NCBI GenBank assembly: GCA_025355855.1
Contig: JANXYU010000003.1
Span: 88,713-152,712 of the forward strand
Origin: Actinomycetota bacterium
Lineage (GTDB): Bacteria > Actinomycetota > JAHEXW01
DNA: 64,000 nucleotides
Reading direction: 5' to 3'
Position numbers and translations under genes: made by a program. Under the pieces are notes generated by a model that was given only the letters and a program-made list of their open reading frames with translations, did no database searches and had not been told where the DNA came from. This document shows, one piece after another, positions 2,572-28,520 of this stretch; position 1 is the stretch's first letter, and each line of letters opens with the position of its first letter.

Positions 2572-2586
2572 TTGTAAATATTACAA
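2572..2586. promoter_or_regulatory. 15-bp perfect palindrome TTGTAA-ATA-TTACAA in the divergent ychF/regulator intergenic region; candidate operator
   Basis: Read directly. Lies ~35 nt upstream of the 2621 ATG in an AT-rich ~100-bp promoter region. Confidence 0.25.
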
Positions 2587-2620
2587 AGAAAGTTGCCGAT
2601 ACATATTATGAGGTGAATAT

Positions 2621-3307
2621 ATGACTCTGCAATGGCTGTTTCATAACTATCAACGAGGTCTTCTGACGGCTCTTTACGAACACCCGATGGAGGCCGTCTG
2701 CCTAAGTGAACTAGCCCGGCGGGCTGGCGTCGATCCCGGCAATACCAAACGCTATCTGGAGAAGTTTGCGGAATGCGGTATAGTATCTGCCGAAAAGCGA
2801 GGACGAAAGACGGCTTTTAGGCCTAACCTGGGAAACCCTGAAACCCGCAAGATTTTTGAGCTGTTCGAGTTAGACAGGACAAAAAAGTTCTTGGCCAAGA
2901 TTCATCCCCTGGCGGATATTCGTGTCGACGCCTTCCTGACGGAACTCGTTGAACAACTGCCCGATATCAGGTTAATCGTCATGTACGGGCTGGAAGACAA
3001 CGATATCGTGGTCAGAAAACCCCTTGGCCTAGCGATCGTTGTCGGTTCTTTGCATGATACGTCCTTAGTCCATCACAAGGTCCGCTCGCTGATTGACTCA
3101 GCCGGATTCAGGCATGAATTCGAGCTCTGCGTTTATACCACCGATAATCTGGCTGCCGCCTGGAATAAGAGCGATTGCGGTTGTGTCGGTTTCTGTAATG
3201 ACCGGGTCGTGCTATTCGGCGAGGGCTACTACTGGCGACTTGTTGACAACCAATTTCATCAAGACCAAACCACCCCCACTGACGAGGAGATGGTTCAAAA
3301 TGCATAA
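2621..3307 (+). CDS. putative winged-helix transcriptional regulator with degenerate nucleotidyltransferase-like C-terminal half; first gene of the exosortase-family operon
   Basis: ATG with GAGGTG RBS. The segment LSELARRAGVDPGNTKRYLEKFAECGIVSAEKRGRKTAF resembles MarR/ArsR-type wHTH. The stop overlaps the next gene's start by 8 nt. Confidence 0.4.
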   Translation: MTLQWLFHNYQRGLLTALYEHPMEAVCLSELARRAGVDPGNTKRYLEKFAECGIVSAEKRGRKTAFRPNLGNPETRKIFELFELDRTKKFLAKIHPLADIRVDAFLTELVEQLPDIRLIVMYGLEDNDIVVRKPLGLAIVVGSLHDTSLVHHKVRSLIDSAGFRHEFELCVYTTDNLAAAWNKSDCGCVGFCNDRVVLFGEGYYWRLVDNQFHQDQTTPTDEEMVQNA

Positions 3308-4037
3308 ACTGATCGCGTTGCGCCTTAAATTTAGGACTCTCGGGCTGATAATCGCTTTGTCTTGCGTCGGCGTCCTGCTATTCGGCGCCACGGCGCTGGC
3401 AGACACCGCCTATTTTGTAAAGAACAGCTCGGAATCCGGTTTGTTCGTAAACGCGCTCAGTGACACCGTTTCGGGGTCGACTTTGGAGTATTCGATATTA
3501 AACATGACGCCGGGCCAAATTTCTTATTTCGGCTCACCGAACGCGACCTCGTATTCCAAGGTCTATCCGGGCGGCAACGGTGTCGCGGCCGGGAATTGGA
3601 CGCTTAGTGCCTGGGGTCGGTCCCTGAACGCCTCTAAAGTAGTATTCTCCGCCGAGATCGGGGAATACACCAGCGCCGGAACCTATACCGTCAAGATACC
3701 GTACGGCGACACGCCGGCCGGTTTTGGCTGGACACCCGATTTTAAGGGGGCTAACGCGACCATGAAGAGTGTCACCAAAGTCGGGGCGCCCGCCTTTACG
3801 ATTGCGGCCGGGAGCCGGATTTATGTGAGGATATACGCCAAAAATACACACTCAACACAGAATCGGGATGCCTTCCTGGCATATAACTCGACCGCAACCA
3901 ATTCAAATCTGTCGACCCCTCCGTTCGCTCAGCCTATACCCGCTCTGGGTTGGTATCTGGTTTTGGCCGGCATCGTGGTGTTCGCGTTCTTCGCCGTCGG
4001 GCAGGGTGTCTTGAAGGTGAGAAGGGATGAAGCTTGA
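3300..4037 (+). CDS. secreted Ser/Thr/Asn-rich protein with signal peptide, nine N-x-S/T sequons and a C-terminal motif+TM helix+basic tail; candidate exosortase-type sorting substrate
   Basis: ATG 3300 opens MHKLIALRLKFRTLGLIIALSCVGVLLFGATALA|DT (AxA cleavage site). The C-terminus is ...PPFAQPIPALGWYLVLAGIVVFAFFAVGQGVLKVRRDEA. The TGA stop overlaps the TTG start of the next gene. Confidence 0.5.
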   Translation: MHKLIALRLKFRTLGLIIALSCVGVLLFGATALADTAYFVKNSSESGLFVNALSDTVSGSTLEYSILNMTPGQISYFGSPNATSYSKVYPGGNGVAAGNWTLSAWGRSLNASKVVFSAEIGEYTSAGTYTVKIPYGDTPAGFGWTPDFKGANATMKSVTKVGAPAFTIAAGSRIYVRIYAKNTHSTQNRDAFLAYNSTATNSNLSTPPFAQPIPALGWYLVLAGIVVFAFFAVGQGVLKVRRDEA

Positions 4038-4633
4038 CTCAGGTCGGCACCGTATTGCTGAGCATTGCTGCGATAACCGCCTACTTGATCGGCGTGATCT
4101 ATTTTCGACGGCGCCGGGCCTGGTTGGGATATTACCTGTTCGCGACTGTCGGGCTAACGCTTATCTTGGTTTTCGGCGCGCAATTGACCGGCTTATCCGA
4201 CAGGATCGAGTATCTAGTCACTTGGCTGACCGCCCGCGCCTCACTGTTGTTAGGCATCCAGGCACAATTCCTGGGCCAAAACGAATTGATGGTCTCAGAC
4301 AAAGCGGGCTGGGTCATTTTGCGAACAACGATCGAGTGCTCGGCCTTGATCGAAACCAGCGTACTGATCGCTTTGGTTGCGTTCTATCCGGCCTTCAGGT
4401 GGACCAAGAAAGCGGCAATTTTGTCTTTCGGCCTGCCGATTACCTGGCTGTCCAACATCGTTCGGTTGCTGATCATCACGGCAGTGACGGCATTCTTTGG
4501 CCGACAAGCAGTGTTTTTCGGACACGCCGTCGTGGGCCGGTTCTTTTTTTTGGTGGTAACAATTGCCCTGTACTGGTACATCCTGACGATGCCGACAGTA
4601 AAACACATCGGGAAGTCTCTAGAACAAGGATAG
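4034..4633 (+). CDS. exosortase/archaeosortase-family protein, minimal ~199-aa form (XrtG-like)
   Basis: Polytopic membrane protein carrying family signature residues in context: TTIECSALIETSVL (Cys), NIVRLLIITAV (Arg), FGHAVVGRFFF (His/Arg). TTG start is coupled to the upstream stop. A family-2 glycosyltransferase follows immediately, as in the Gram-positive XrtG subfamily. Confidence 0.55.
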   Translation: MTQVGTVLLSIAAITAYLIGVIYFRRRRAWLGYYLFATVGLTLILVFGAQLTGLSDRIEYLVTWLTARASLLLGIQAQFLGQNELMVSDKAGWVILRTTIECSALIETSVLIALVAFYPAFRWTKKAAILSFGLPITWLSNIVRLLIITAVTAFFGRQAVFFGHAVVGRFFFLVVTIALYWYILTMPTVKHIGKSLEQG

Positions 4634-4647
4634 AGGCGAGATTCTAA

Positions 4648-6291
4648 ATGGACGGTTTGTGGACGTTTATGCTGATCTGGGGTGTTTGGATCCTGCTGCC
4701 GATTCTGGTGGACGGGTCAGACACACTTCTCAGGCTATTCGTTGTGCTGCTTTGGGGACGCAAGAAAATCCGGCCGACTGTCGCCGACGCCGACTTGCCG
4801 TTCGTCTCCATCCTTGTGCCCGCGTATAACGAAGACCAAGTCATCGACCGCTGTTTGAACTCGATCAAACTGCAGGACTATCCGCACGACAAGATGGAGG
4901 TCATTGTAATTAATGACGGTTCGAGCGACCTTACCGCGGATAAGGTTCTAAGCCATATCGACGGCCGCGAAGTCGGCATGCGCGATCTTAACCAGCGCGA
5001 TCCCAAGGGCGCCGTAAGCGATGCGGGCGAGGTTTTCAGGGTCGTACCGCCGGGCATCTATCGCAGTAAAGACATCGTCGTTGACGAAGAATCCCGCCGC
5101 CCGAAGCACGACGAAGCCCTCTTGGAAGGCAAGTATGTCGACGTCCCCGAATTCAGCGGCGAGATGACGCTCATTAATAACCACCACTTTGGCAAACCGA
5201 CCGCGTTAAACTCGGGCATCTCACAGATGAACGGGAGTCAGATAATCTTTACGGTCGACTCCGACGTCGTTCTTGATGGCGGCGCGGTACGCAATATGGT
5301 CTACGCGTTTCTGGATGATCCCAAATTGGGCGCAGCGACCGGACACATCGAGATATCCGAGGATATCGTGGAGGAACGCGACGAACTTGGTAACCTTGTC
5401 TTAGATGAGAAGGGCCACCTGATTCGCAAGAAGATGAACTTTATGCAAACCGCTTTGACGCGTCTCCAATTCCTGGAGTATTTGGACGCGTTCCGGCTCG
5501 GGCGGCAGTTCCAGGCGACGATCGGTTCCGCATACATCTTGGCGGGCGCCTTCTCCGCATTCAGGCGCAGCACCCTTATGAAGACCGAACTCTATAAACC
5601 GCGCACGGTCAGCGAGGATTTTGACTTGACCGTCGATATCCATGAAACCGGCGAGAAAGTCGGTTATGTCGCTGAATCTAAGGCCTTGCTGGCGCCTGTC
5701 ATTAACGTCAATGCTCTGTATTCCCAGCGTGTGCGCTGGTGCAGAGGACAGCTGGAAGTAGCCGGGGCGCACCAGAAAGTAATCGGCAACCGGCGTTATG
5801 GCATGGTTGGCTGGTTCGGTTTTCCGCAGATGCTGATTACCGATCACACCTTAAGTTTTCCCAGATTGATCTGGACGATTCTGATCATCATGTTTCCGCT
5901 CTTCGGTTATCCTGTTAGCACAGTCACACTGGCCCTATTGTTTACCTATGCGTTTTATGTTGTGCTTAGTTTCATGCAAACCTTCGCCGCCTACGTGATA
6001 GTAGATGGGGAAACAAAACGCAAGACGGAACGGGCCTTGGGTTGGTGTTTCGCCTTACCGTTCTACCGCTTGGTCGTATTCTACTTCCGGATGTCCGGCT
6101 ACTTGCGAACCCTTACTGAGCCAGCCGGTTGGGACATCACGTCTAAGACTTTGGTTAACGCGAACGCGAATATCGACAGACTGAAGGACGGGGCCGCCGG
6201 GATGCTCCGTACCTACAAAAGAACCGCCCATGGCGTCGCCGCCATCGTACGCTCCGTCATGATGCTCGTCCTCTTGTTCGTGCGGGACTAG
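4648..6291 (+). CDS. processive family-2 glycosyltransferase (membrane-embedded polysaccharide-synthase type)
   Basis: Motifs VPAYNED, DGSSD, GKPTALNSG, TVDSDVV (DxD), SEDFDLT, QRVRWCRGQ (QxxRW). N- and C-terminal TM helices. An ~90-aa insertion sits between DGSSD and GKPTALN. Confidence 0.75.
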   Translation: MDGLWTFMLIWGVWILLPILVDGSDTLLRLFVVLLWGRKKIRPTVADADLPFVSILVPAYNEDQVIDRCLNSIKLQDYPHDKMEVIVINDGSSDLTADKVLSHIDGREVGMRDLNQRDPKGAVSDAGEVFRVVPPGIYRSKDIVVDEESRRPKHDEALLEGKYVDVPEFSGEMTLINNHHFGKPTALNSGISQMNGSQIIFTVDSDVVLDGGAVRNMVYAFLDDPKLGAATGHIEISEDIVEERDELGNLVLDEKGHLIRKKMNFMQTALTRLQFLEYLDAFRLGRQFQATIGSAYILAGAFSAFRRSTLMKTELYKPRTVSEDFDLTVDIHETGEKVGYVAESKALLAPVINVNALYSQRVRWCRGQLEVAGAHQKVIGNRRYGMVGWFGFPQMLITDHTLSFPRLIWTILIIMFPLFGYPVSTVTLALLFTYAFYVVLSFMQTFAAYVIVDGETKRKTERALGWCFALPFYRLVVFYFRMSGYLRTLTEPAGWDITSKTLVNANANIDRLKDGAAGMLRTYKRTAHGVAAIVRSVMMLVLLFVRD

Positions 6292-6295
6292 CGCG

Positions 6296-8839
6296 TTGGC
6301 ACAGGCGATTCCCGAACCCCTGCAACCGGCCAAGCCCGACGTGCGCAAAGGTTGGACTCTGTCTCGGTTTATGCTGGGCTTGGCTTTCATTTGGCTGGTA
6401 GTGTTCGTCGTCTTCCGCCACATCGCCGAGCCGGGTGTTCCCGCTGGTAATGATGCGATGGCCCACCTGTTTAAGATCTGGTATATCGGTCAACACCTGG
6501 CCCAGACGCATACATTTCCCGTGTGGCTGCCATACTGGTACGAGGGTACTGACCTCATCAAGTATTATCAACCTCTATTCTACGTAGTCGCGACGCCCTT
6601 CTACCTGATCACGAAGGATGTGTTCACCACTTACCGGATCGTCACGTTCGTTTGGATCGGGCTAGTGAGCCTGTCCATGTACGGAGTAGTCTACCGCCGT
6701 CTCGGCCTATTCCCAGCAATCGTCGCCGCCATCCTCTACGCATTGTCCCCGCCCGTGATAAGGGCCTATTTTTATGTCGGTCTGCTGCCGCAGGCGTTCT
6801 CGTACATATTTCTGCCGCTGGCTTTTCATTTCACCCTGCGCCTGGCCGATGAAGGCGCCAAGAGGGCCAAGACGGTCGCGCTACTGGCCGTCTGTTGGGG
6901 TCTATTTATTCTGGCCCATCCGATGAGCGCGGCTTTCTCGATGATGGCCACGTTCGTCTTTATTGCTGTCTATCAGGCTACTAAACAGGAGGAACGGCAC
7001 CCCCTGGTGGTCACGCGCTACCTTTTGTCAGCGGCTTTGGGAATCGGCGTAGCCGCCCTCTGGTTCGTGCCGGCTTACTTCGGCAAGATAATGCCGCCAA
7101 CGTCAGGCGAAGCGGTTTTTACGACTTCGGTTCCCTTGAAGGAGTTGGCGGGGTTTGTCACTGGCGCCGCGACCGTAAACGCCCGCTATATTCCGATTGC
7201 TCTGTCTATCTTGGCGATAGCGGGAACATTCTGGCGTCGTACCGCGCTCGCGTGGGGCTTAGCCGCCATGGGAGCGTTTACGATGATCTTCGCGTTGGGC
7301 GTGCAAACGCCCCTCTATAGTTGGGTACCACTGTCGTCGGCCATTTTTCCTGAGTACGCTCTTTTCGGCGCCTGTTTCGCGTTTGCTTTTCTGGCCGGCC
7401 GCCTTTTCGAAAGAACTATCCGTAACCGGGCCAAAGACGCTGCGACTGTCGTTCTCATCGTGACGGTGGTATTTATCGCCTTGTTGGAAACACAACCTGT
7501 CTTTACGTCAGTCATCAACAAGCCCGCGCCGTCCGACATTATTCGCTTACTCGATAAAGCGAAAACCTTGCCCGCCGACGGCCGGGTATCGATGCTTGGC
7601 CATTCCTCGGCGGTCCTGTCCTATTATCCGACTGTCTTGACAGGCCGCCAGATCACCGAGGGTTTCTTCTACCAAGGAACGAACCACTACAAAGAAATCG
7701 CCAATATCAACGACGTGCAGATTCATGATTATTCGCCCGAATATGTCCACCGGAAGCTGGCGCAGTGGAACACGCGGTATATCATGGTTCACACCGCGAC
7801 GCTTACGCAGGACAAGGCGGTCATCCCGCCGGGCTATAAAAAGGTCGCTACGGCCCAATTGTGGAATCTTTTCTATCAGGATAAGGCCCGTTCAAGCTTC
7901 CAGCTAATGACTCACGACACTATTGCCATCGGCAAGAACCCGGCCATCGTCGCTCTGCGCTATCCCTGGGTCGTCGAGGGCGGCTTGTATGTCGACAACT
8001 ACGATTGGAAATATCTTTCGCAATTCAAACGGATCATCCTGACCGGCTTCGCTTTTCATGATCGCAAGACGACCGTCGATCTGATAACTCGACTGGCGGA
8101 GAGCGGACGCACGGTCGTTATCGATCTCCAAGACGTCGCGAGTGAGTTCGGCACTGAGAGCGTCTCGTTTATGAATGTGTTGCCGATTCCCGTGACGACC
8201 CGTCAGCAAATCAGCCTGACACCGTCCGAGCAATTAACCGGCCTGCCACGGCGAAAACTTAATCTGCGGAATCTTGCTTATAACGGGGAGGCCTGGAAGG
8301 CGGTAGTCTATACGGGCCTCGACTCAAGCGCGTACGATGTCACGATCGAGGGCAAAACCTACAGCGCGTTGGGCTATAAGCGCGCCGGAGCGGGCAAGAT
8401 ATATTTCGCGGGTTTGAATCTATTTTTCCACAATTTGCTGGCGGCCGAGAAAGATGGGACCGCGCTCACCGATTGGCTGGCCGGTCCGCGTGATCCCAGT
8501 CTGTATATGACCAATTTCCCTGTCACAGCCCAAACCTGGCGCGATGATTCGGTCGACTTCAGTTACACGTCAACGAAGACCGCTCCGGTTGTGGTTTCGA
8601 CAACTTGGACCGAAAACTGGCACGCGACAATCGACGGAAAGCCGCTCAAGGCCTACGCATATGAAAACATGCCGTTGTTCTTCCTGCCCGCCGGCGCTCA
8701 TACGATCGAGTTGAAATACGGCACAACGGGATTGGAGATTTTTGCTACGCTTATCACGGTAGCGTCAGTCGCAATCGTCCTCTTCATTTTAATAAGGAGC
8801 GTGCGCCGTAAAAACAGCGCTGATAATACCGGCCTTTAA
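6296..8839 (+). CDS. large polytopic membrane protein (~13 N-terminal TM helices, ~430-aa extracytoplasmic domain, terminal TM anchor); candidate GT-C-fold/YfhO-like glycosyltransferase, XrtG-associated
   Basis: Hydropathy pattern read from the translation. Acidic first loop (GNDAMAHLF...WYEGTD). Synteny between a processive GT2 and a polyprenol-phosphate-sugar-synthase-like GT2. Confidence 0.45.
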   Translation: MAQAIPEPLQPAKPDVRKGWTLSRFMLGLAFIWLVVFVVFRHIAEPGVPAGNDAMAHLFKIWYIGQHLAQTHTFPVWLPYWYEGTDLIKYYQPLFYVVATPFYLITKDVFTTYRIVTFVWIGLVSLSMYGVVYRRLGLFPAIVAAILYALSPPVIRAYFYVGLLPQAFSYIFLPLAFHFTLRLADEGAKRAKTVALLAVCWGLFILAHPMSAAFSMMATFVFIAVYQATKQEERHPLVVTRYLLSAALGIGVAALWFVPAYFGKIMPPTSGEAVFTTSVPLKELAGFVTGAATVNARYIPIALSILAIAGTFWRRTALAWGLAAMGAFTMIFALGVQTPLYSWVPLSSAIFPEYALFGACFAFAFLAGRLFERTIRNRAKDAATVVLIVTVVFIALLETQPVFTSVINKPAPSDIIRLLDKAKTLPADGRVSMLGHSSAVLSYYPTVLTGRQITEGFFYQGTNHYKEIANINDVQIHDYSPEYVHRKLAQWNTRYIMVHTATLTQDKAVIPPGYKKVATAQLWNLFYQDKARSSFQLMTHDTIAIGKNPAIVALRYPWVVEGGLYVDNYDWKYLSQFKRIILTGFAFHDRKTTVDLITRLAESGRTVVIDLQDVASEFGTESVSFMNVLPIPVTTRQQISLTPSEQLTGLPRRKLNLRNLAYNGEAWKAVVYTGLDSSAYDVTIEGKTYSALGYKRAGAGKIYFAGLNLFFHNLLAAEKDGTALTDWLAGPRDPSLYMTNFPVTAQTWRDDSVDFSYTSTKTAPVVVSTTWTENWHATIDGKPLKAYAYENMPLFFLPAGAHTIELKYGTTGLEIFATLITVASVAIVLFILIRSVRRKNSADNTGL

Positions 8840-9518
8840 CGAGAAAGAAAATATCGGACCGCTGCTTGATCGCGTCGAGACAGTCATCGCGGACTCGGCT
8901 CTGACTTTAGATGTCGTTGTCGTCGATGATGGCTCCTTCGACACCACCGGATCGATCGCGGCGGACAAGGCGGCAAAATACGGTAACGTCAATGTGGTCA
9001 CCCACGAGGTAAATAAGGGCTTTGCCGCTGCGCTCAAGACCGGTATCGCCGCCGCACTGGCAGGCGGATACGACGCCGCTGTCTTTATGGACTGTGACCA
9101 GACACACGATCCCGCCGATTTGCCGGCCTTTCTTACGCAATTGGAACGCGGTACTGACCTGGTTATCGGCTCTCGTTATGTGGGAACCGGCGGGATGGTC
9201 GATGTCCCGTGGCACCGCGTGGCGATCAGCGTGCTCGGCAACGGTTTCGGCAAGCTTGTCTTTCGGCTCCCGGTCCGCGACGCTTCCAGCGGATATCGCG
9301 CTCTGAGCCGCAAGGCTATGGCATCGCTCCGCATCGCCTCCAATGATTTCAGCATCCAGGTCGAAGAGGTCCTGCGCGCCCGGCGGCTGGGTCTGACTTT
9401 CTCGGAGATACCCATAACTCTGGTGAATCGCAAACTAGGTTCGTCAAAATTCAATCTGAATATCTCGGCGCTGTGGCGCTATTTCTTATTAATGTTTAGG
9501 AGCCTGACATGGCGCTAA
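8820..9518 (+). CDS. family-2 glycosyltransferase of the polyprenol-phosphate sugar synthase type (DPM1/GtrB/ArnC-like), soluble form; start codon unresolved
   Basis: ...ALIIPAFNEKENIGPLLDRV...VVVVDDGSFDTT...FMDCDQTHDP...GSRYVG. The frame is open only from 8796 and has no ATG/GTG/TTG before 8994. The start is either CTG 8820 or a frameshift near the A5 run at 8810-8814. Confidence 0.65.
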   Translation: MIIPAFNEKENIGPLLDRVETVIADSALTLDVVVVDDGSFDTTGSIAADKAAKYGNVNVVTHEVNKGFAAALKTGIAAALAGGYDAAVFMDCDQTHDPADLPAFLTQLERGTDLVIGSRYVGTGGMVDVPWHRVAISVLGNGFGKLVFRLPVRDASSGYRALSRKAMASLRIASNDFSIQVEEVLRARRLGLTFSEIPITLVNRKLGSSKFNLNISALWRYFLLMFRSLTWR

Positions 9519-10642
9519 AGGTGATGGCCGTTTTTGGCACTCGGCCGGAAGCAATCAAGCTGGCGCCGGTTATCGACGAGTTACGGCAACGGGACGGGGT
9601 CGAATGTCGCGTCGTAGTCACGGCGCAGCATCGGGAGATGATCGACCAGGCTTTGAATATTTTCGAAATCCGGCCGGACGCGGACCTGAATATTATGCGC
9701 CCCGACCAGACGCTGGACGATGTCGTCTGCCGGGCGCTGGCCGGGATTGCGCCTGTCTTTGAAACCATGGAGCCGGATGTCGTTTTGGTCCAAGGAGACA
9801 CGACGAGCGCGCTGGCGATGGCTTTGGCCGCCAGTCACCGCGGCATCACCGTCGGCCACGTGGAAGCCGGCCTGCGCACCCACGACAAGGCGCACCCGTT
9901 TCCGGAAGAACTGAATCGTCAAATGATCGGCCGCCTGGCCGACCTCCATTTCGCCCCGACCGAGATCGCCCGCGATAATCTGCTGGCAGAAGGCATAGCG
10001 TCAGATCGCGTCTTCCTGACAGGCAACACAGTCGTTGACACGCTGCTCCGGCTATCAACCGAGATTAGAGAACCGGTGGACGATACGCTACGGCGAATTG
10101 ATTTCGATAAACAAAGGGTCATTCTCGTAACCGCGCACCGGCGCGAGAATTTCGGGGCGCCTCTCGAGCATATTGCGACCGCCGTTAGGCAAATCGCGGA
10201 GGAACATGCGGACGTCGAGATTGTCCTACCGGTACATCCGAACCCACGCGTTAGCGCGGTAATGCGCGCGGCGCTCGCTAACGTCGAACGCGTCCATTTG
10301 GTTAAACCACTAAACTACTCCGATCTAATCTGGGTCTTAGCGCGTTGCTATTTCGCCATGACGGATTCCGGCGGCATTCAGGAGGAAGCTCCGACTTTTA
10401 AGAAGCCCGTACTGGTTATGCGGGAGAAGACGGAGCGGCCTGAAGGTATTGAGGCCGGCGTTGCTAAAATCGTTGGGACGACCGTTTACCGCCTGGTCGG
10501 CGCGGCATCCGATTTGCTTAATAACGAAGGGGTCTACGCCAGCATGCGGGCCCGGAAGAACCCCTACGGCGACGGCCATGCCGCCGCCCGGATCGCCGAC
10601 ATTCTGCTCGAAACCCTATCAGATACTGCGAGAAAACTCTAA
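9509..10642 (+). CDS. wecB: UDP-N-acetylglucosamine 2-epimerase (non-hydrolysing)
   Basis: MALKVMAVFGTRPEAIKLAPV...HVEAGLRT...RENFG...TDSGGIQEEAP are typical WecB/MnaA family segments; 377 aa. Confidence 0.9.
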   Translation: MALKVMAVFGTRPEAIKLAPVIDELRQRDGVECRVVVTAQHREMIDQALNIFEIRPDADLNIMRPDQTLDDVVCRALAGIAPVFETMEPDVVLVQGDTTSALAMALAASHRGITVGHVEAGLRTHDKAHPFPEELNRQMIGRLADLHFAPTEIARDNLLAEGIASDRVFLTGNTVVDTLLRLSTEIREPVDDTLRRIDFDKQRVILVTAHRRENFGAPLEHIATAVRQIAEEHADVEIVLPVHPNPRVSAVMRAALANVERVHLVKPLNYSDLIWVLARCYFAMTDSGGIQEEAPTFKKPVLVMREKTERPEGIEAGVAKIVGTTVYRLVGAASDLLNNEGVYASMRARKNPYGDGHAAARIADILLETLSDTARKL

Positions 10643-10690: not shown

Positions 10691-10790
10691 TGCTTTAAAG
10701 CGCTAAAGCGGCGCTACTTCAGCGCTACGTAGCGCTGAAGTGTTTCGTGCACAGGACTCACTTCACCGCTATGTAGCGGTGAAGTGGAAC
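10691..10790. repeat. palindromic repeat cluster (CTTTAAAG and AGCGCT cores; perfect 24-bp palindrome CTTCAGCGCTACGTAGCGCTGAAG at 10717..10740; variant CTTCACCGCTATGTAGCGGTGAAG at 10761..10784)
   Basis: Read directly. Lies between convergent wecB and the nfnB-like gene. The same family recurs at 28398-28520, 36127-36156 and 49578-49601. Confidence 0.8.
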
Positions 10791-10833: not shown

Positions 10834-12270
10834 TTACGGACGGGGTTGTTGCAGATATGCGTCAATGGATTTGGCGGCGCGTTTACCGGCGCCCATTGCC
10901 GCGATAACCGTCGCGCTGCCGGTGACTATATCACCGCCAGCGAAAACGCCCGGGAGGCTGGTCTGGCCGGTGGCTTCGGCCGCCGCTATATAACCGCGGT
11001 CGGTAAGGTTTAAACCGGGGGTCGCGTTACCGATGAGCGGGTTGGCGCGGGTGCCGATGGCCATAATCACCGTGTCGACGTCTAACACAAACTCCGAACC
11101 GACTACCTCGAAAGGACGACGGCGACCGCTGGCGTCGGGCTCACCCAGCTCCATAGTTATACAACTAAGTCCGGAGACTCGGCCGCTGTCGTCTCCCAAA
11201 ATCTCGATTGGGTTGTTTAGCAGTTTGAACTCGATACCTTCATCCCCGGCGTGGTGAACCTCTTCGGCGCGGGCGGGCAACTCTTCGAGGCTCCGCCGGT
11301 AAACAAGATAGACATGTTCCGCGCCAAGGCGCATCGCGACGCGCGCGCTATCGATTGCGACATTGCCGCCGCCGACAACCGCGACATTCTTCCCGCGGGC
11401 GATGGGGGTGTCATATTCGGGGAATAAATAAGCTTTCATGAGATTGGCTCGAGTCAGAAACTCATTAGCGGAATAGACGCCGTTCAGATTCTCGCCGGGA
11501 ATGTTCATGAACATGGGAAATCCCGCACCTGACGCGATAAAGACGGCGTCGTAGCCATGGTCAGACATTAGTTCCTTAACACCGAATAAATGGCCGATCA
11601 CGGCGTCTGTTCTAATCTCGACGCCCAGGCCTTTTATGTACTCGACCTCGCTTTTAACGATGTCTTTAGGCAAACGGAATTCGGGGATGCCGTAGACAAG
11701 CACCCCACCCGGCTCGTGCAGCGCCTCGAACAGTGTCACCGCATAACCCAGCCGCGCCAAATCGCTGGCGCACGTCAGTCCGCCGGGTCCGGAGCCGACA
11801 ACGGCGACTTTCTTGTTAGACGCGAGGCGTGAGACGCGAGGCGTGAGTTGCCTTCCGGCTTGTTCTCGCTCATAGTCAGCCACAAATCTCTCCAAGCGGC
11901 CAATAGCCAGCGGCTCGAAACGTTTGCCGAGAACGCAGCCGTTCTCGCATTGCTTCTCTTGCGGACAAACTCGGCCGCAAACCGCGGGCAGAGCGTTATT
12001 TTCTTTTATCTTTTGGGATGCTTCGGCAAACTTGCCCTCTTTGACCAGAGCGACAAATTCCGGGATAGGTACCTCAACAGGACACCCTGCCTGGCAAGTC
12101 GGTTTACGACAGCTAAGGCAGCGGGCGGCTTCCGCCAGCGCGTCTTCTTCTGAATAGCCCAGCGCGACTTCCTCGAAATTGCGAGCGCGCCTCTTGGGGT
12201 CCTGTTCCGGCATCGGTCGGCGCGACTGCTTGGGAGAGGGCGCGCGCTTTTCTATTTCTGACACTGGCAT
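10834..12270 (-). CDS. NADPH-dependent glutamate-synthase-small-subunit-like flavoprotein (NfnB/SudA-type)
   Basis: N-terminal 2x Fe-S Cys clusters (CLSCRKPTCQAGCPVEVPIP..., CGRVCPQEKQCENGC) and two Rossmann motifs (VAVVGSGPGGL, VAVVGGGNVAID). Confidence 0.75.
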   Translation of the reverse strand: MPVSEIEKRAPSPKQSRRPMPEQDPKRRARNFEEVALGYSEEDALAEAARCLSCRKPTCQAGCPVEVPIPEFVALVKEGKFAEASQKIKENNALPAVCGRVCPQEKQCENGCVLGKRFEPLAIGRLERFVADYEREQAGRQLTPRVSRLASNKKVAVVGSGPGGLTCASDLARLGYAVTLFEALHEPGGVLVYGIPEFRLPKDIVKSEVEYIKGLGVEIRTDAVIGHLFGVKELMSDHGYDAVFIASGAGFPMFMNIPGENLNGVYSANEFLTRANLMKAYLFPEYDTPIARGKNVAVVGGGNVAIDSARVAMRLGAEHVYLVYRRSLEELPARAEEVHHAGDEGIEFKLLNNPIEILGDDSGRVSGLSCITMELGEPDASGRRRPFEVVGSEFVLDVDTVIMAIGTRANPLIGNATPGLNLTDRGYIAAAEATGQTSLPGVFAGGDIVTGSATVIAAMGAGKRAAKSIDAYLQQPRP

Positions 12271-13100
12271 GCCTCCCCGCCGTGATAATGGTCCAAGGCC
12301 AAACGTTCTTGTTCCACATAGCCGCGCAGACGCATCGCCAACTGATCGAAGTTAACGGCGTGACCGTCGAACTCGGGCCCGTCGGCACAGGCGAATTTTG
12401 TCTCTCCGGCGACTTCGATGCGGCAGGCGCCGCACATCCCGGTGCCGTCAACCATGATGCAATTGAGGCTGACAACTGTTTTGACCCCGAACGGACGCGT
12501 CGTATCGGCGCAAAACTTCATCATTGGCCCCGGCCCGATGGCCACGACCAGGTCGATGTCTTGACGTTTTTCGAGGGTCTCCTTGAGAGGTTCGGTGACA
12601 AGAGCGCACCGGCCCCAGGTGCCGTCGTCGGTCGTGGTGATAAACTTGTCGCAGACTGAGGCTAGTTTGTCTTCCATGATCATAAGGTCTTTGGTGCGGC
12701 AACCGATGATTCCGATCACATGATTGCCCGCGTCGCGCATTGCCCTGGCAATCGGATATACGGGGGCGATGCCGACACCTCCGCCGATGACGATAACATT
12801 TTTGCCGACGGGAATGTGGCTCGGCCGACCCAACGGGCCGGCCAGATCCAAAAGAGCTCCGCCGGCGTCGTAGCAAGCGGCCAGTTCTTCGGTCGTTTTA
12901 CCGACGACCTGGAAAACGATGTCGACCGTCCCGGCCGCGGCGTCGAAATCGGCGATGGTCAAAGGAATGCGCTCGCCTCGTTCGTCTAAACGCAATATGA
13001 CGAATTGTCCGGCCTGCGCGGCGCGGGCAATGTCGGGCGCTTCCACCGTATACTGGTATATGCCATCCGCCAGTTGCTCCTTCTTAAGGATGCTGAACAA
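12252..13100 (-). CDS. ferredoxin-NADP reductase-like subunit with C-terminal [2Fe-2S] (NfnA/SudB-type)
   Basis: FAD/NAD-binding PDR-like fold (VILRLDERGERIPLTIADFD...IIGGGVGIAPVYPI) and a C-terminal Cys cluster CIMVDGTGMCGACR...C. Overlaps the NfnB-like gene by 19 nt. Confidence 0.75.
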   Translation of the reverse strand: MFSILKKEQLADGIYQYTVEAPDIARAAQAGQFVILRLDERGERIPLTIADFDAAAGTVDIVFQVVGKTTEELAACYDAGGALLDLAGPLGRPSHIPVGKNVIVIGGGVGIAPVYPIARAMRDAGNHVIGIIGCRTKDLMIMEDKLASVCDKFITTTDDGTWGRCALVTEPLKETLEKRQDIDLVVAIGPGPMMKFCADTTRPFGVKTVVSLNCIMVDGTGMCGACRIEVAGETKFACADGPEFDGHAVNFDQLAMRLRGYVEQERLALDHYHGGEACQCQK

Positions 13101-13138
13101 GTGCCTCGCGCCTCGCTTAGTCTTATCGACAGTACTAG

Positions 13139-15604
13139 TTATGCTTTCTTGGCCGCCGCGGGCTTGCGGGCGGCTTTACGCGTAAAGACGATCTGGTTAT
13201 CTTTTATGTCGGTCACTATAGTGTCGCCGACATCGAACACTTTGCGCAATATCTCTTTGCTTAACGGTCCCTCGATATCATGTTGGATTACCCGTCGCAA
13301 CGGGCGGGCGCCGTATTCAGATTCCTCCGCCATTGAGGCGATCTTCTCAGTCACGGCGTCGGTGACCTCTAACCTATAGCCGAGCATCGCGACCTCTTCC
13401 TTGACTCGCCCAAGCATCAAACGGACAATCTGCTGCAAGCTATCCAGCGTCAAGCTGTCGAAAACGACGATGTCGTCGACCCTGTTTAAGAATTCGGGGC
13501 TGAAGGCTGACTTCAAGTCGTTGAGCAACTTGTCGCGCATGTCTTCAAACTGGCCCGCTCGGTCGATCTCGCCCGCCTTGAAGCCCATCGGCCCGTTCGT
13601 CCGGTTAATGTCCCGCGCGCCCACATTGCTGGTCATAATGATCAGCGTGTTCTTGAAATCAACGGTGCGCCCCTGTGCGTCTGTCAGACGACCGTCCTCT
13701 AGTATCTGAAGCAGGGCGTTAAACACGTCTGGGTGGGCCTTCTCTATCTCGTCCAGCAAAACAACCGAATAGGCCCGGCGGCGGACCGCTTCCGTCAGCT
13801 GGCCGCCCTCCTCGTAACCGATGTAGCCAGGAGGCGCGCCGACCAGGCGCGATACCGTGTGCCGCTCTTGATATTCACTCATATCGAGACGAACCATCGC
13901 GTTTTCGTCATCGAACAGGAACTCCGCCAGCGCCTTTGTTAGTTCTGTCTTGCCGACCCCGGTCGGGCCGAGGAAGATGAAAGAACCGATCGGGCGGTTG
14001 GGATCCTTCAATCCGGCGCGCGCCCGCCGTACCGCTTCGCTTACCGCGCTGACGGCGTCGTCCTGGCCGATGATCCGGCTATGTAATACTTCCTCCATCT
14101 TAAGTAGCTTGGTAATCTCTTCTTCCATCATGCGGGACACCGGCACACCGGTCCAAGTGCTGACCACTTGAGCAATCTCATCCTCCCCGATTGTGATGCC
14201 CTCCATGCCCTTCTCCTTCAGCCAGGCTTCGCGCATGTCTTGAAATTCCTTTTGCACTTGGTCGGTCTCGGTACGAAGTTGAGCCGCTTTCTCAAAGTCG
14301 CGGGCTTGCACCGCTTCTTCGCCGGCGGTTGTTAAGGCACGCAGTTTTTTGTCTACTTTCCTTAGCTCCGGCGGATACATGATCGCTTCGATGCGCATCT
14401 TACTGGAAGCCTCGTCGATTAAGTCGATTGCCTTATCGGGCAAGAATCGGTCACTCACATAACGATGTGAAAGATTGGCCGCCGCTATCAAGGCTTCGTC
14501 GCTGATGCGGACGCCGTGGTGTTCCTCATATTTCTCGCGGATGCCCCGCAGGATGTCGATTGTCTCGGCCACCGTCGGTTCATCGACAAAGACAGGCTGA
14601 AAACGCCGCTCCAGGGCCGGATCCTTTTCAATGTATTTCTTGTATTCATCCAGTGTAGTGGCTCCGACGCATTGCAGTTCTCCTCGCGCGAGCGCGGGTT
14701 TCAGGATGTTGCTGGCGTCTATAGCGCCCTCGGCCGCGCCGGCTCCGACGACGGTATGCAGCTCGTCAATGAACAGGATAATTTCGCCGGACGCTTTACG
14801 CACCTCTTCGACGGCGCCTTTCAAACGCTCCTCGAATTCGCCGCGATACTTGGCGCCGGCGATCATGCCGGCTAGATCGAGACTCATGACGCGTTTGCCC
14901 CGCAGGATATCGGGAATCTCGCCGCTGATTATGTCTTGCGCCAAGCCCTCAATGATGGCCGTTTTGCCCACACCTGGCTCGCCGATTAATACGGGGTTAT
15001 TCTTGGTCCGCCGGCTAAGAATCTGAATGACGCGTTTGATTTCGTCACTGCGTCCGATGACCGGGTCAAGCTTGTCTTCCTCGGCCAATAATGTGATGTC
15101 GCGCGCATACTTTTTCAACATGACGAACCGTCCGGTGCCTTCGCCCTGGCTGCCGCGAATGATGTTTAACGATTGATAGATCTTTTCCGGCGTCAGCCCT
15201 AGGTCCTTCAGGACAAGTGCGCCGGCGCCTTCGCCTTCCTTTAAAACGCCCAACAATAAATGCTCGGTGCCGATGACGTCATCGCCCAAGGTCTGGGTCT
15301 CCTCAAAGGCTAAGTCCATGGCTTTCTTCGCCCTGGGGCTGATAAACAGCGACCCGACCGCTCCGCCTGTCTCTTCCCGGGCGCGCTGGCCTCCCGACAG
15401 CTGAACCGCCTGATTGGCCCGGGTACGCGCCTCACCGATGTCGATTTTGGTGAACTCGAGGATCTGGGTGACCACTCCGTCGGTATCGGCTAGCAAGCCG
15501 ACCAGGAGATGTTCGGTACCCAGCTGGTTGGAGCCGGATTCCCGCAAAACGTCCTGGGCCAGCGCTATCGCTTCTTGCGCTTTATCCGTGAATTTATTGA
15601 ACAT
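13139..15604 (-). CDS. clpB: ATP-dependent chaperone ClpB
   Basis: Two AAA+ modules ([20 protein letters not shown]), a middle coiled-coil region and a Clp N-domain; 821 aa. Confidence 0.95.
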
Positions 15605-15616
15605 GTCGAATCACTC

Positions 15617-16015
15617 CTATATAGACATCAAACCGCCCGGTCGATGCCGAACGATTTCTCTGGAATAGCTTCTCTTTATCCGGTCGATCTCTCGCTCCAT
15701 CTCCGTCTCCAGCACAGACCTTTTGTCTTCGATTTCGTCGACCAGTTCTTCTAAATCGCTTAACCTCTCCCGCATTTCGATAATCATCCGCACACCCGCC
15801 AGGTTTACCCCAAAGACCTGCGTTAGCTCTTGGATCTCGCGTAACCTCGCGATATCCACATCGGAATAACGTCGGCTGTGGCCGCCGGTCCGCTGCGGGC
15901 GCAATAAACCCTCGCGCTCATACAAGCGCAGAGTCTGTGGATGCATCCCGACCAACTCAGCCGCTACGCTGATAACATAGACGGCGCCTTGTCGCCTGCG
16001 GTCATTTTCAGCCAT
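15617..16015 (-). CDS. hspR: heat-shock repressor HspR (MerR family)
   Basis: MerR-type HTH ([26 protein letters not shown]), placed between dnaJ and clpB as in actinobacterial dnaK operons. Confidence 0.85.
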
Positions 16016-17116
16016 TTATTTCAACCCCTTGCGGATATCTTCCGGACTTGCTTTCTTGAGCTTGGTCAGCAGTTCCTTTTCTTCCGCATTCAGTTTTCCG
16101 GGAACCACGACTGTCAGCTTTACAAACATATCGCCTCGGCCTAAACCGCGCAGCCGCGGGGCGCCCTTGCCGCCCACCCGCAGCACTTGGTCTGCCTGGG
16201 ATCCGGCCGGAACCTTTAAAGTGATGTGGCCGGTCAGGGTGGGAACAGATATCTTCGCGCCCAAAGCCAGCTCCGGGTACGTTACCGGCAGATCCAGCCA
16301 GACATCGGCGTGATCGCGCCGGAAATATTTATGCGGCGCGACTTGCGTAACAACGTATAGATTGCCCGCCGGGCCACCGCGTAAACCCGCTTCGCCTTTG
16401 CCTTTGACGCGGATGGTCGAACCGTTCTCTACGCCCGCCGGAATCTTCACGGTCAGATTCTCGGTCATGTTGACTCTAGCCCGGCCCCGACAATCGGGAC
16501 ACGGCTCTTCGATGATCTGACCGGTGCCGGCGCAATTGTGGCAGGGCTGTTGAATGCTGAAAAACCCTTGCGTGTTGGAAACAACCCCGCGCCCTCCGCA
16601 GGCCTGACAGGCTTTGGCGGAAGTACCGGGCTTGGCGCCTGTGGCGTTACAAGTTTTACAGTCAACCTCGTGAGCCACGTCTATCCGGACCGCCGTTCCG
16701 TTAACCGCGTCGTCGAAATTAAGCCGCAAGTTATACTGGATGTCGCGGCCGCGCTCCGGTCCTCTGGTGCGCGCCCTGCCGCCGCCGCCGCCGAACATGT
16801 CAAAGATATCACCGAAGTCAAAGCCTCCGGCGTTAAACCCGCCGAACCCGGCTCCGTAGTCTTGTCCGGCGCCCGGACCGCCGCCAGGACCTCCGGCTCC
16901 AAAGAACCGCACCCCGTTGTCATAGTCGGACCGTTTCTTGGTATCGCTCAAAACCTCGTAGGCTTGCGAGATTTCCTTAAACTTCTCCTCGGCCGCTTTG
17001 TTGTCCGGGTTAGCGTCAGGATGATGTTGCCGGGCTAAATTACGGTAAGCCTTCTTTATTTCCTCGGGGCTGGCATCCTTCCCGACGCCTAGTAACGCGT
17101 AGTAATCCTCCGCCAT
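16016..17116 (-). CDS. dnaJ: molecular chaperone DnaJ
   Basis: J-domain with HPD (DYYALLGV...HPDAN), G/F-rich region, four CxxCxGxG zinc-finger repeats. Confidence 0.95.
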
Positions 17117-26448: not shown

Positions 26449-27161
26449 TGGATCGCCTGCCAAACAATGGCCGCCAAAGCCGCGGTGAAATAAGCGGCGA
26501 ACGTGGCATCGGTTCGGGTCAGAACGAAACGACGCGGCGTGTGGGCGTGACCGTGATAGCCGCGGGCCAGCATCGCCTGGTAAATACGTTCGCCTCGCTC
26601 GAATGTATTGATGAAAAGGGACCCCAATATATTGCCGGCGGCGCGCATTTGCGACCAACCACGACGCCCATAGCTGCGGGCGACGCGCGCTCGCTCTAAC
26701 TTAGCGACCTGATCTATCAACGTAAAGATATAGCGGTACATAAAGGACAAAATCGTTGTCAGTAGTTTTGGCACACCCAGACTTTCTAGGGCCTTTAGAA
26801 GTGTGGGGAAATCGGTTGTACCTGACAGGACAATCAATGCCAGCACCGACAGCCAAGATTTGGCCAGGATGTTAAAGAACACTGAAAACGGCCTAAAGAA
26901 GAGGTTGAAGAGCCCGATCATGAGGGCGAACGGGATAATTATTAGCGACCTCTTTAAAACAAACAAGAGCGGCAGCTCCGACAGAAACACTACTGAGAAT
27001 ATGAGAACGACATAGAGAAAGAAGGCCGCATACCTGTCAGGCGGCGTCAGAACGACACAGAGGATGAACGCCAGAAAACACATGGTCTTAACCCTGGGAT
27101 CGAGACGGCTGACTGTTGTATCCAGATAGCTGAACTGGTCAACGCTAGGGCTTTGCATCAT
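26445..27161 (-). CDS. ECF-transporter transmembrane (T) component CbiQ/NikQ
   Basis: Polytopic protein of CbiQ length with C-terminal ...ARGY...H region, located between the M and O components. Confidence 0.75.
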   Translation of the reverse strand: MMQSPSVDQFSYLDTTVSRLDPRVKTMCFLAFILCVVLTPPDRYAAFFLYVVLIFSVVFLSELPLLFVLKRSLIIIPFALMIGLFNLFFRPFSVFFNILAKSWLSVLALIVLSGTTDFPTLLKALESLGVPKLLTTILSFMYRYIFTLIDQVAKLERARVARSYGRRGWSQMRAAGNILGSLFINTFERGERIYQAMLARGYHGHAHTPRRFVLTRTDATFAAYFTAALAAIVWQAIQ

Positions 27162-28397: not shown

Positions 28398-28520
28398 TGC
28401 TTTAGCGCTTTAAAGCACTACAGCGCTCCAGCGTAGGGATTCGATTACTTCAGCGCTACGTAGCGGTGAAGCGTCCAACGTGACGGTTCGATTACTTCAG
28501 CGCTACGTAGCGGTGAAGTA
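28398..28520. repeat. palindromic repeat cluster: GCTTTAGCGCTTTAAAGCACTACAGCGCT followed by two tandem ~47-bp units, each containing the near-palindrome CTTCAGCGCTACGTAGCGGTGAAG
   Basis: Read directly; 24-mers at 28448..28471 and 28495..28518; lies between the cooC/acsF-like gene and nikR. Confidence 0.8.

Follow-up and report, generated by a model that had tools for sequence, protein, structure and literature searches.

A divergent actinobacterial relative of the XrtG system and its candidate sorting target

Exosortases are widespread, and their chemistry is poorly understood. To our knowledge, no bacterial exosortase has an established acceptor, XrtG systems have not been characterised experimentally, and we know of no experiment that shows processing by an XrtG-type enzyme. 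In RefSeq, canonical XrtG loci are ordered as a Firmicu-CTERM protein, annotated immediately upstream of xrtG, then xrtG itself, a TIGR03111 glycosyltransferase (GT) and a PF10131 or TIGR03766 protein. Moreover, 'a complete XrtG system' including a Firmicu-CTERM protein was described in 2026 (PMC12854382), so that the statement in an earlier note on this DNA that no target protein had been described for XrtG does not stand. The only experimentally characterised relative is the archaeosortase A/PGF-CTERM system, in which removal of the C-terminal helix is coupled to anchor attachment (10.1101/2023.06.07.544157). According to Haft, the substrates of exosortases and archaeosortases have a motif that abuts the transmembrane (TM) helix with no spacer, and adjacency to the enzyme is a criterion for dedicated systems (10.1101/2023.06.07.544157).

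The locus described here lies in a 64-kb stretch of DNA, hereafter the window, and has the same gene order as the canonical XrtG loci. It is therefore a variant of a known system, with a different and unmodelled tag in place of the Firmicu-CTERM domain. Its features are as follows.

2621..3307, plus strand: putative regulator of 228 aa with an N-terminal winged-HTH-like region (sub-threshold HTH matches only)
3300..4037, plus strand: predicted secreted protein of 245 aa, the candidate sorting target, with a predicted signal peptide, a beta-sandwich domain and a C-terminal sorting signal
3918..4034, plus strand: predicted C-terminal tripartite signal of this protein, residues 207-245 (conserved motif, TM helix and basic tail)
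4034..4633, plus strand: XrtG-like exosortase-family protein (Xrt) of 199 aa with 5-6 TM helices (PF09721, TIGR04178, TIGR03110)
4337-4339, 4463-4465 and 4523-4525, plus strand: putative catalytic residues C102, R144 and H164 of Xrt (conservation in 25 homologs)
4648..6291, plus strand: membrane-embedded processive GT2 synthase of 547 aa, TIGR03111-like, with QRVRW at residue 360
6296..8839, plus strand: polytopic, GT-C-like membrane protein of 847 aa (PF10131, 'PTPS_related')
8820..9518, plus strand: DPM1/GtrB-type GT2 (polyprenyl-phosphate sugar synthase-like) of about 232 aa (PF00535), with a probable CTG start
9509..10642, plus strand: WecB, a non-hydrolysing UDP-GlcNAc 2-epimerase (TIGR00236, PF02350)

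The seven plus-strand genes with overlapping or near-abutting junctions listed in the earlier note were recovered in a check of the open reading frames of the window (2621-10642), and an independent public gene call on an identical contig gives the same 228-, 245-, 199- and 547-aa products. The first two genes overlap by 8 nt (3307/3300), the second and third within TTGA (4037/4034), and the last two also overlap (9518/9509), while gaps separate the genes at 4633/4648 and 6291/6296. A scan for promoters and terminators returned counts no higher than those in shuffled controls. The full seven-gene layout is common only to the closest relatives (loci L001 and L006), and the conserved core consists of four genes, encoding the target, Xrt, the GT2 and the GT-C-like protein. 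The first gene has orthologs of 36-80% identity in the same position in L001-L007, L041, L047 and L048, and its matches to HTH models (IclR, HTH_24, ArsR and DUF7342) all stay below threshold. It is missing from more distant loci, where EAL/GGDEF genes often occur instead.

The 199-aa protein belongs to the exosortase family, as the earlier note had proposed: it scores above the cut-offs of PF09721 (33.5 bits, cut-off 25.7) and TIGR04178 (50.2 bits, cut-off 23). The best specific model is XrtG TIGR03110 (79.7 bits, below the NCBI cut-off of 102.75), with ArtC far behind at 29.7 bits. The other members of the clade behave in the same way, with 72-89 bits against TIGR03110 and only one of them (L010, 105 bits) passing the cut-off. 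Alignment of profiles with hhalign pairs the window protein with Eubacterium eligens XrtG over almost its full length at 98.4% probability. At least five TM segments are found in the protein. Among 25 Xrt homologs, R144 and H164 do not vary and C102 is kept in at least 90%, though the sequences diverge down to 34% identity; two homologs (P0022 and the Xrt of L044) have Ser in place of the catalytic Cys. The product of 4034-4633 is thus an exosortase-family member and a putative Cys/Arg/His transpeptidase.

The protein encoded just upstream has a predicted signal peptide at residues 1-34 (MHKLIALRLKFRT...ATALA, followed by DT), read straight from the sequence with the boundary ALA|DT. Its tail (residues 207-245) consists of PPFAQPIPALGW, the TM helix YLVLAGIVVFAFFAV and the basic tail GQGVLKVRRDEA, so that IPALGW, the helix and KVRRDEA follow one another at the extreme C-terminus. 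Judged by the tripartite sorting-signal criteria of Haft (10.1101/2023.06.07.544157), the protein has the motif, the TM helix and the basic cluster at the C-terminus, together with the predicted N-terminal signal peptide. The motif directly abuts the helix with no spacer, consistent with the same work (10.1101/2023.06.07.544157). Within the target family, I213, P214, L216, G217 and W218 are invariant. The structure model of the target is of low confidence (pLDDT 60). An HMM built from the tails of the clade has exactly one match in the 64-kb window; a motif-like tail at 27145-27780 (minus strand) was picked up only by a loose regular expression, had no HMM score and was treated as a chance match.

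We then compared these tails with the curated NCBIfam CTERM models at E<=10, and none reached its cut-off (Firmicu-CTERM, IPTL-CTERM, MYXO-CTERM, JDVT-CTERM, LPXTG and the rest), which sets the tag apart from the known sorting domains. For Firmicu-CTERM (TIGR04145), neither the window target nor its tail gave a match even at E<=10, whereas two positive controls (L037 and L039) scored 154 and 94 bits. Homology between the target family and a Firmicu-CTERM protein was also rejected by hhalign (1% probability). A word-indexed search with the tail alignment returned three short fragments only and was uninformative. At the sequence level, [IV]P[AT]LGW is a new, sharply conserved tag that matches no curated model. 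Annotation pipelines currently miss it, and the tagged proteins are labelled 'hypothetical'.

Scanning genomes with Xrt motifs as seeds returned 31 loci, of which 30 could be assessed. A protein with [IV]P[AT]LG(W), a TM helix and an R/K cluster adjoins the Xrt gene in 29 of these 30. Among the assessed loci, the tagged gene lies just upstream in 22, target and Xrt are fused in a single ORF in seven, and in one the target is divergently adjacent. The same arrangement of tag, helix and basic cluster beside Xrt is seen in L001, L004 and L002, the last of which has two Xrt copies, each with its own tagged protein upstream. The tagged cargo proteins are between about 76 and 1721 aa long, with mutually unrelated N-terminal domains. 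In L041, for instance, an unrelated cargo carries a nearly identical tail in the identical position, and P0046 matches the target profile in the tail only. The association also holds in reverse: starting from the target profile alone, an Xrt gene adjoins all four hits with enough flanking DNA (P0046, P0040, P0048 and P0039). The MAGs that contain the scan loci are labelled Actinomycetota, Coriobacteriia, Chloroflexota, Saccharibacteria and 'Eubacteriales', with one archaeal bin.

These data bear on the simplest reading of the tail, namely that it serves as a common C-terminal anchor in the membrane and that its adjacency to Xrt is inherited synteny with no functional link. The two closest relatives, L001 and L006, have the whole chromosomal neighbourhood in common with the window (ychF, rpsF, ssb and rpsR), so that synteny among these three does not count as independent evidence. 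However, the association extends over at least five phylum-level MAG labels with different flanking genes, it involves unrelated cargo, duplicated target-Xrt pairs and gene fusions, and it reappears in the search from the target. This reading is contradicted by the results, and we consider it extremely improbable. The conserved tag, the co-occurrence across phyla, the unrelated cargo and the fusions instead strongly support the proposal of the earlier note that the 3300-4037 product is the sorting target of the adjacent Xrt. In addition, the natural target-enzyme fusions constitute Rosetta-stone evidence for the pairing of enzyme and target.

The enzyme is accompanied by XrtG-type glycosyltransferases, again in agreement with the earlier note. 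The best match of the 4648-6291 product is TIGR03111, the XrtG-associated GT (267.9 bits, cut-off 363.95), followed by PgaC/IcaA (119.5 bits) and NodC, and in Pfam by Chitin_synth_2 (28.1 bits). It matches PF00535, PF13641 and PF13632, has SEDFD at about residue 322 besides QRVRW, and contains four TM segments; the GT2 fold, the Q(Q/R)xRW motif and the flanking TM helices of the processive-GT2 signature are all found in it. Wherever a locus includes enough DNA, the gene directly after Xrt encodes a GT2 of this kind (36-95% identity). The 6296-8839 product scores 205 bits against PF10131, a family that also has a member in the canonical XrtG locus of E. eligens (455 bits). Its predicted topology, a point that the earlier note had left for checking, is one of about nine TM helices at the N-terminus and one at the C-terminus, with a large extracytoplasmic domain between them; this fits the GT-C layout of a multi-TM catalytic module plus an extracytoplasmic domain. 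Proteins in the same position in other loci match PMT_2 and Glyco_transf_22 above cut-off, and also the C-terminal part of PF10131, whereas the window protein matches PF10131 and DUF6541 only. A sequence search of the 847-aa protein against the PDB gave no matches, and there was no match to TIGR03766.

On these sequence grounds, the operon is a divergent actinobacterial relative of the XrtG system, and the locus is probably a dedicated one-enzyme/one-target XrtG-type protein-sorting system joined to a surface-glycan synthase, the one-to-one relation being that of the examined neighbourhoods and the 64-kb window. As its signal peptide indicates, the 245-aa protein would be exported by Sec and tethered by its C-terminal helix, with IPALGW at the outer face of the membrane and the KVRR tail on the cytoplasmic side. 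The XrtG-like Cys/Arg/His enzyme would, by analogy with ArtA/PGF-CTERM and XrtA/PEP-CTERM, recognise the motif, remove the helix and transfer the protein to an acceptor. The processive GT2, whose relatives include PgaC, NodC and chitin synthase, may together with the GT-C-like PF10131 protein make and decorate a HexNAc-type surface polymer, which would be either the acceptor or the matrix where the processed protein functions. In the sub-clade of the window, the DPM1-like GT2 and WecB would supply a polyprenol-P-sugar and UDP-ManNAc. Cleavage and its site, the acceptor and the glycan identity are what we infer within this scheme. As a PgaC/chitin-synthase-like GT2 is invariably coupled to the system, attachment of the protein to a polysaccharide, or its embedding in one, is directly testable.

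The fusions can also be read differently. The target could stay uncleaved and belong permanently to the glycan synthase complex as an extracytoplasmic subunit anchored by its C-terminus, in the manner of BcsB with BcsA, where a periplasmic, CBM-like protein is held by one C-terminal helix, and Xrt would then be a membrane scaffold or partner and not a protease. Such a subunit would fit with the permanent fusion of the target to the membrane domain of Xrt in seven loci, with the two Xrt homologs that lack the Cys and with the position of the GT2, always directly after Xrt. The fusions as such are equally compatible with an uncleaved subunit, and the sub-cut-off NCBI scores of Xrt and the GT2, the Cys-to-Ser changes and the low confidence of the target model weigh against the sorting system that we favour. 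However, Cys, Arg and His are otherwise conserved throughout the divergent family, and a fixed subunit of the synthase would not be expected to have domains that are unrelated from one locus to the next, as those of the cargo are. Moreover, the fusions keep the short [IV]P[AT]LG motif although the target's own helix and basic tail are replaced, suggesting that the motif is recognised and does not simply anchor the protein. We regard a permanent subunit as unlikely.

The last two genes vary more between loci. WecB is identified with confidence (TIGR00236, 477 bits, cut-off 210; PF02350, 400 bits). Only the window, L001 and L006 have it in the operon; L004, L007 and L036 have it in the vicinity. 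DPM1-like GT2 genes (GT2b-like) recur near many loci. The window copy (8820-9518) matches PF00535, with AglJ, PpgS and dolichyl-P-hexose transferase as its best NCBIfam models, all below cut-off. Its reading frame extends upstream to 8796, and none of the codons ATG, GTG and TTG occurs in it before 8994 (about residue 58 of the GT2 domain). It likely starts at the CTG at 8820, since the resulting LIIPAFNE N-terminus aligns with the orthologs of L001 and L048, which start at TTG. It is plausible that a polyprenol-P-sugar synthase acts together with a GT-C-type enzyme.

The earlier note had gone further and coupled C-terminal processing to N-glycosylation of sequons in the target, with the DPM1-like GT2 providing the donor, WecB the precursor and the GT-C-like protein the transfer. 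It counted nine N-x-S/T sequons; our recount gives eight, against 2.4 expected in the 211 residues of the mature protein (P about 2e-4). Enrichment is also found in L006 and L001, which have the GT2b-WecB extension, and the models best matched by the window GT2b as well as the recurrence of such genes are in line with this proposal. However, the enrichment is confined to these three proteins among the 30 targets tested (z 3.4-3.9), and they are close relatives, which points to one evolutionary event. The other 27 targets are at expectation (192 sequons observed, about 186 expected), and sequon enrichment as a general feature was rejected. Members P0029 to P0032 of the target family have one to three sequons only. 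Nor does enrichment track the DPM1-like GT2, as L048 has this gene in the operon and a target with a single sequon, and the window GT2b itself lacks a canonical start codon. No STT3-family oligosaccharyltransferase (STT3/PglB/AglB) was found among the seven locus proteins by HMM search, and we know of no PF10131 or PMT_2-type GT-C enzyme that acts as an N-oligosaccharyltransferase. We consider coupling to N-glycosylation quite improbable.

A bolder proposal goes beyond the dedicated sorting system that we favour. The clade might represent an exosortase subfamily that has not been described before and has a sorting signal of its own ('IPTLGW-CTERM'), covalently attaching a single cargo to the nascent HexNAc polymer of the adjacent synthase, and the cargo-Xrt fusions might be self-processing, single-turnover precursors. 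We put this forward as a speculative possibility that is doubtful at present; if true, it would offer a first tractable way to study how exosortases work chemically and what their acceptor is. In vitro, cleavage could be assayed on the natural fusions as self-contained substrates. In any case, the XrtG architecture is extended beyond Bacillota to Actinomycetota, Chloroflexota and CPR lineages.

The likeness to other known systems is of different kinds. To IPTL-CTERM (TIGR04174) it is at the level of the motif only (IPTLxEWG there, (I/V)PTLGW or VPTLGEW here); membership was rejected, since the score over profile positions 1-9 is 10-11 bits, where the cut-off is 20.5, and the window tail has no match. 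The DPM1/GtrB-like GT2 and the GT-C-like polytopic protein recall the two-step extracytoplasmic glycosylation of the GtrB/GT-C systems CsbB-YfhO and Ppm1-Pmt, but no flippase was identified at the locus, and the window protein matches PF10131 and not PMT_2 or YfhO. Archaeosortase A is the mechanistic template for the processing proposed here. It differs in being archaeal, in its prenyl lipid acceptor, in its many targets and in having no GT2/GT-C synteny. PEP-CTERM/exosortase A (EpsH) shares the enzyme superfamily, the Cys/Arg/His triad, a tripartite signal whose motif abuts the TM helix and the association with exopolysaccharide loci (PMC1569441; 10.1101/2023.06.07.544157). However, XrtA is larger, has many targets per genome (median 8), occurs in diderm bacteria and has the motif PEP instead of IP[AT]LGW, and the window Xrt reaches only 17 bits against the XrtA model.

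The closest system is XrtG/Firmicu-CTERM of Bacillota, which likewise comprises a tagged target, an exosortase of about 190-200 aa, a processive GT2 and a large polytopic membrane GT. Both have EAL/GGDEF genes as neighbours and a one-to-one, adjacent relation of enzyme and target, and TIGR03110 and TIGR03111 are by far the best matches for the third and fourth genes here, but below the curated cut-offs. The window Xrt is 26-33% identical to canonical XrtG, with TIECSALIE around the active site where canonical XrtG has (Y/F)ECSG(I/V)IE. The target is unmatched by the Firmicu-CTERM model (191 positions), and its tag combines [IV]P[AT]LGW, a TM helix and RRR, whereas that of Firmicu-CTERM combines a Gly/Ser-rich motif, a TM helix and KKKK. 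Unlike the canonical system, the locus has no gene for a QueD-like 6-carboxytetrahydropterin synthase, and it has the wHTH gene, the DPM1-like GT2 and WecB in addition. Finally, the hosts of this clade are Actinomycetota, Chloroflexota and CPR MAGs rather than Bacillota, and the existence of target-enzyme fusions sets it apart from XrtG/Firmicu-CTERM.

We recovered all seven plus-strand ORFs of the earlier note, with their overlaps and short gaps, in the ORF listing, and in a public gene prediction for an identical contig the products are 228, 245, 199 and 547 aa long. The operon comprises the following genes:

2621-3307, plus strand: gene 1, 228 aa, only sub-threshold wHTH matches
3300-4037 (within a longer ORF, 3093-4037), plus strand: gene 2, the candidate target, 245 aa, no Pfam/NCBIfam match
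4034-4633, plus strand: gene 3, the exosortase-family protein Xrt, 199 aa, matching Exosortase_EpsH, the exo_archaeo signature and XrtG TIGR03110
4648-6291, plus strand: gene 4, GT2a, 547 aa, a GT2 with TIGR03111 'XrtG-associated glycosyltransferase' as top model
6296-8839, plus strand: gene 5, 847-aa membrane protein, PF10131 PTPS_related, 205 bits
frame ending at 9518, plus strand: gene 6, GT2b, a DPM1-like GT2 matched over the C-terminal two-thirds of the GT2 domain
9509-10642, plus strand: gene 7, WecB, 477 bits

In the Pfam/NCBIfam search, Xrt scored 33.5 bits with Exosortase_EpsH (cut-off 25.7), 50.2 bits with the exo_archaeo signature (cut-off 23) and 79.7 bits with XrtG TIGR03110 (cut-off 102.75). 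GT2a reached 267.9 bits with TIGR03111 (cut-off 363.95), its next best models being PgaC/IcaA and NodC, and carries a QRVRW motif at residue 360. In the 847-aa protein, about nine TM helices at the N-terminus are followed by a large loop domain and one further TM helix at the C-terminus. The top matches of GT2b were AglJ, PpgS and a dolichyl-P-hexose transferase. The frame of GT2b, open from 8796, includes the essential N-terminus LIIPAFNE...DDGS, without any ATG, GTG or TTG before 8994, which corresponds to residue ~58 of the catalytic domain. A CTG at 8820 lines up with the TTG starts of the GT2b orthologs in the related loci L001 and L048. An AAGGAG at 8794-8799 and then a GTA at 8808 lie upstream, and L006 has GTG codons near the corresponding start. 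CTG initiation, translational coupling and gene decay are all possible.

The operon is flanked by a minus-strand housekeeping block (1-2521; rpsR, ssb, rpsF, ychF) and by glutamate-synthase-like and Clp ATPase genes (10834-15604). The rpsR-ssb-rpsF-ychF flank is common to the relatives L001, L002 and L004, so in this lineage the system is chromosomal and has been inherited vertically. A palindrome of 28 nt, perfect or nearly so, CACTTCASCGCTAYGTAGCGSTGAAGTG, is dispersed over five sites in the window (10715-10742, 10759-10786, 28446-28473, 28493-28520 and 49577-49604; 0 expected by chance), two copies lying between the convergent wecB and glutamate-synthase-like genes. It resembles an intergenic element of the REP type.

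Comparative genomics strongly supports the proposal that the protein encoded upstream is the substrate of Xrt. Among 5.8 billion proteins, Xrt has 25 relatives and the target only 7, several pairs being on one contig. The L001, L002 and L004 contexts repeat the order ychF(-), [EAL], a 212-230-aa HTH protein, upstream protein, Xrt, GT2 and large membrane protein. The translated upstream proteins differ in length (237-245, 507 or 1121 aa) and in their N-terminal domains, and all their tails consist of [IV]P[AST]LGW[WY], a hydrophobic helix and FAVRxGxxKLRR. L002 has two Xrt genes, each preceded by its own tagged protein. These tandem pairs (8481-10612 and 12488-16461) encode targets of 507 and 1121 aa with the Xrt copies P0008 and P0013, and the two targets have a common repeat-rich domain, beta-propeller-like in appearance. 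P0038, a 678-aa protein, joins a window-type N-domain, an L002-type repeat domain and the tag.

Searching 185,579 species genomes for Xrt motifs gave 31 loci, all in MAGs, labelled Actinomycetota/Actinomycetes, Coriobacteriia, Anaerolineales/Chloroflexota, 'Eubacteriales', Saccharibacteria, Geothermocultoraceae and, for one bin, Methanofastidiosia. At 22 of these loci, the ORF directly upstream of Xrt ends with F[YF]S[IV]P[AT]LGW[PG]L, a TM helix and WRRR; at L009 the target is divergently adjacent to Xrt, and L008 runs into the end of its contig. An HMM of the tails had exactly one match within the 64-kb window. In the reverse test, the target-family profile retrieved 13 proteins from 1.84 billion representatives. 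Those matched through the tail carry other cargo domains, and all four of the 13 with enough flanking DNA adjoin an Xrt gene and a GT2. At exactly the same position (ychF, HTH, target, Xrt), P0046 has a nearly identical tail behind an unrelated N-domain. The contig binned as a Candidatus Methanofastidiosia archaeon (L010, JBHIDS010000004.1) carries a complete set, with a tagged 169-aa protein, Xrt, GT2, a PF10131 protein and a DPM1-like GT2, and its Xrt exceeds the XrtG cut-off with 105 bits. Lateral transfer or a mis-binned contig could account for it.

A dedicated sorting system is the best-supported reading of the locus. On the model of ArtA/PGF-CTERM and XrtA/PEP-CTERM, as summarised by Haft (10.1101/2023.06.07.544157; PMC1569441), the target would be exported by Sec and held in the membrane by its C-terminal helix, and the Cys/Arg/His exosortase would recognise the motif abutting the membrane; as we infer for all steps beyond motif recognition, the helix would then be removed and the protein passed to an acceptor. 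According to the main rival, the tagged protein stays uncleaved and serves as a BcsB-like subunit. The exchange of cargo domains between loci and the conservation of the catalytic triad argue against it, although two Xrt variants in which Ser replaces the catalytic Cys (ESSALIE; P0022 and L044 1332-1889) would fit such a subunit. The target adjacent to the L044 enzyme, P0048, has STLGW where others have PTLGW, which may reflect co-variation of enzyme and tag.

Seven loci encode target and Xrt as a single-ORF fusion:

7082-10546 in L013
797-4270 in L017
6977-10561 in L019
6860-10558 in L030
7874-10543 in L033
7064-10546 in L034
50-5758 in L011, 1902 aa

Besides its fusion, L011 has a second copy of Xrt and a tagged protein encoded separately. 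Each fusion starts with an N-terminal signal or TM segment, then has an ectodomain of considerable size (roughly 650 to over 1,400 aa) and the motif in the form VPTLGE(W/I) (e.g. ...TTQFFSVPTLGE[WI]). After a linker of 10-20 residues come directly Xrt TM1 and RRRRWL, so that TM1 and RRRR of the enzyme substitute for the target's own helix and basic cluster. This replacement agrees with the topology, as Xrt TM1 crosses the membrane from outside to inside and RRRR is cytoplasmic. Such fusions would also fit an uncleaved BcsB-like subunit, but the motif is kept in them, which counts against that reading.

Directly 3' of Xrt, the relatives invariably encode a TIGR03111-like GT2 (36-95% identity), and then a polytopic protein of 770-930 aa that is either a full-length PF10131 protein or PMT_2 with the C-terminal part of PF10131. 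A gene for a PRC-barrel domain protein separates the GT2 gene from the PF10131 gene in some relatives (L043 4235-5065, L045 2057-2854). The canonical XrtG system and the present clade both have EAL or GGDEF-EAL genes as neighbours (L002 6242-7612; L004 7133-8500; L037 4413-6098; L042; L043; L045 7275-8642; L047 865-2169), which suggests c-di-GMP control; within the window there is no EAL/GGDEF gene, only the wHTH gene. The invariance of the GT2 and GT-C partners and the frequency of EAL/GGDEF neighbours suggest, as acceptor or matrix, a HexNAc-like surface polymer of the biofilm type.

The target has 8 sequons, not nine as previously counted, against 2.4 expected (P about 2e-4), and its L006 and L001 orthologs are likewise enriched (z 3.4-3.9). 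However, this enrichment is not general: 27 other targets hold 192 sequons for ~186 expected, the family members P0029 to P0032 only 1-3 each, and L048 combines a DPM1-like GT2 in the operon with a single sequon in its target. A Pfam search of the locus found no STT3 homolog. The suggested coupling to N-glycosylation of the sequons is thus not borne out. Pairing of a GtrB-like with a GT-C enzyme is plausible, because GT2b-like genes lie near many loci.

The view that XrtG has no described target is out of date, since RefSeq annotates a Firmicu-CTERM protein next to xrtG. On Lactococcus lactis and E. eligens plasmids in RefSeq, the order is Firmicu-CTERM protein, xrtG, TIGR03111 GT, QueD-like protein and TIGR03766 GT or PF10131 protein; GGDEF and EAL genes precede the system on the Lactococcus plasmid, and on an Aneurinibacillus plasmid a 'hypothetical protein' precedes xrtG and the TIGR03111 GT. 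Given this same gene order, the window locus is homologous in architecture. However, both Xrt and GT2a fall under the NCBI family cut-offs, and Xrt is only 26-33% identical to canonical XrtG, yet hhalign aligns them over the full length with 98.4% probability. The 191-position Firmicu-CTERM model gave no match for the target but scored 154 and 94 bits for controls, and hhalign gave 1% probability. Canonical XrtG tails have a Gly/Ser-rich motif, TM and KKKK, whereas the window clade has IP[AT]LGW, TM and RRR. None of the NCBIfam sorting-domain models reached its cut-off on any clade tail; IPTL-CTERM, alike in motif, scored only ~10 bits. In the papers searched, we found no description of the tag, the taxonomic range or the fusions. 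The locus represents a divergent form of the curated XrtG/Firmicu-CTERM system and not an unprecedented one; its novelty lies in the tag, the range of taxa and the target-enzyme fusions.
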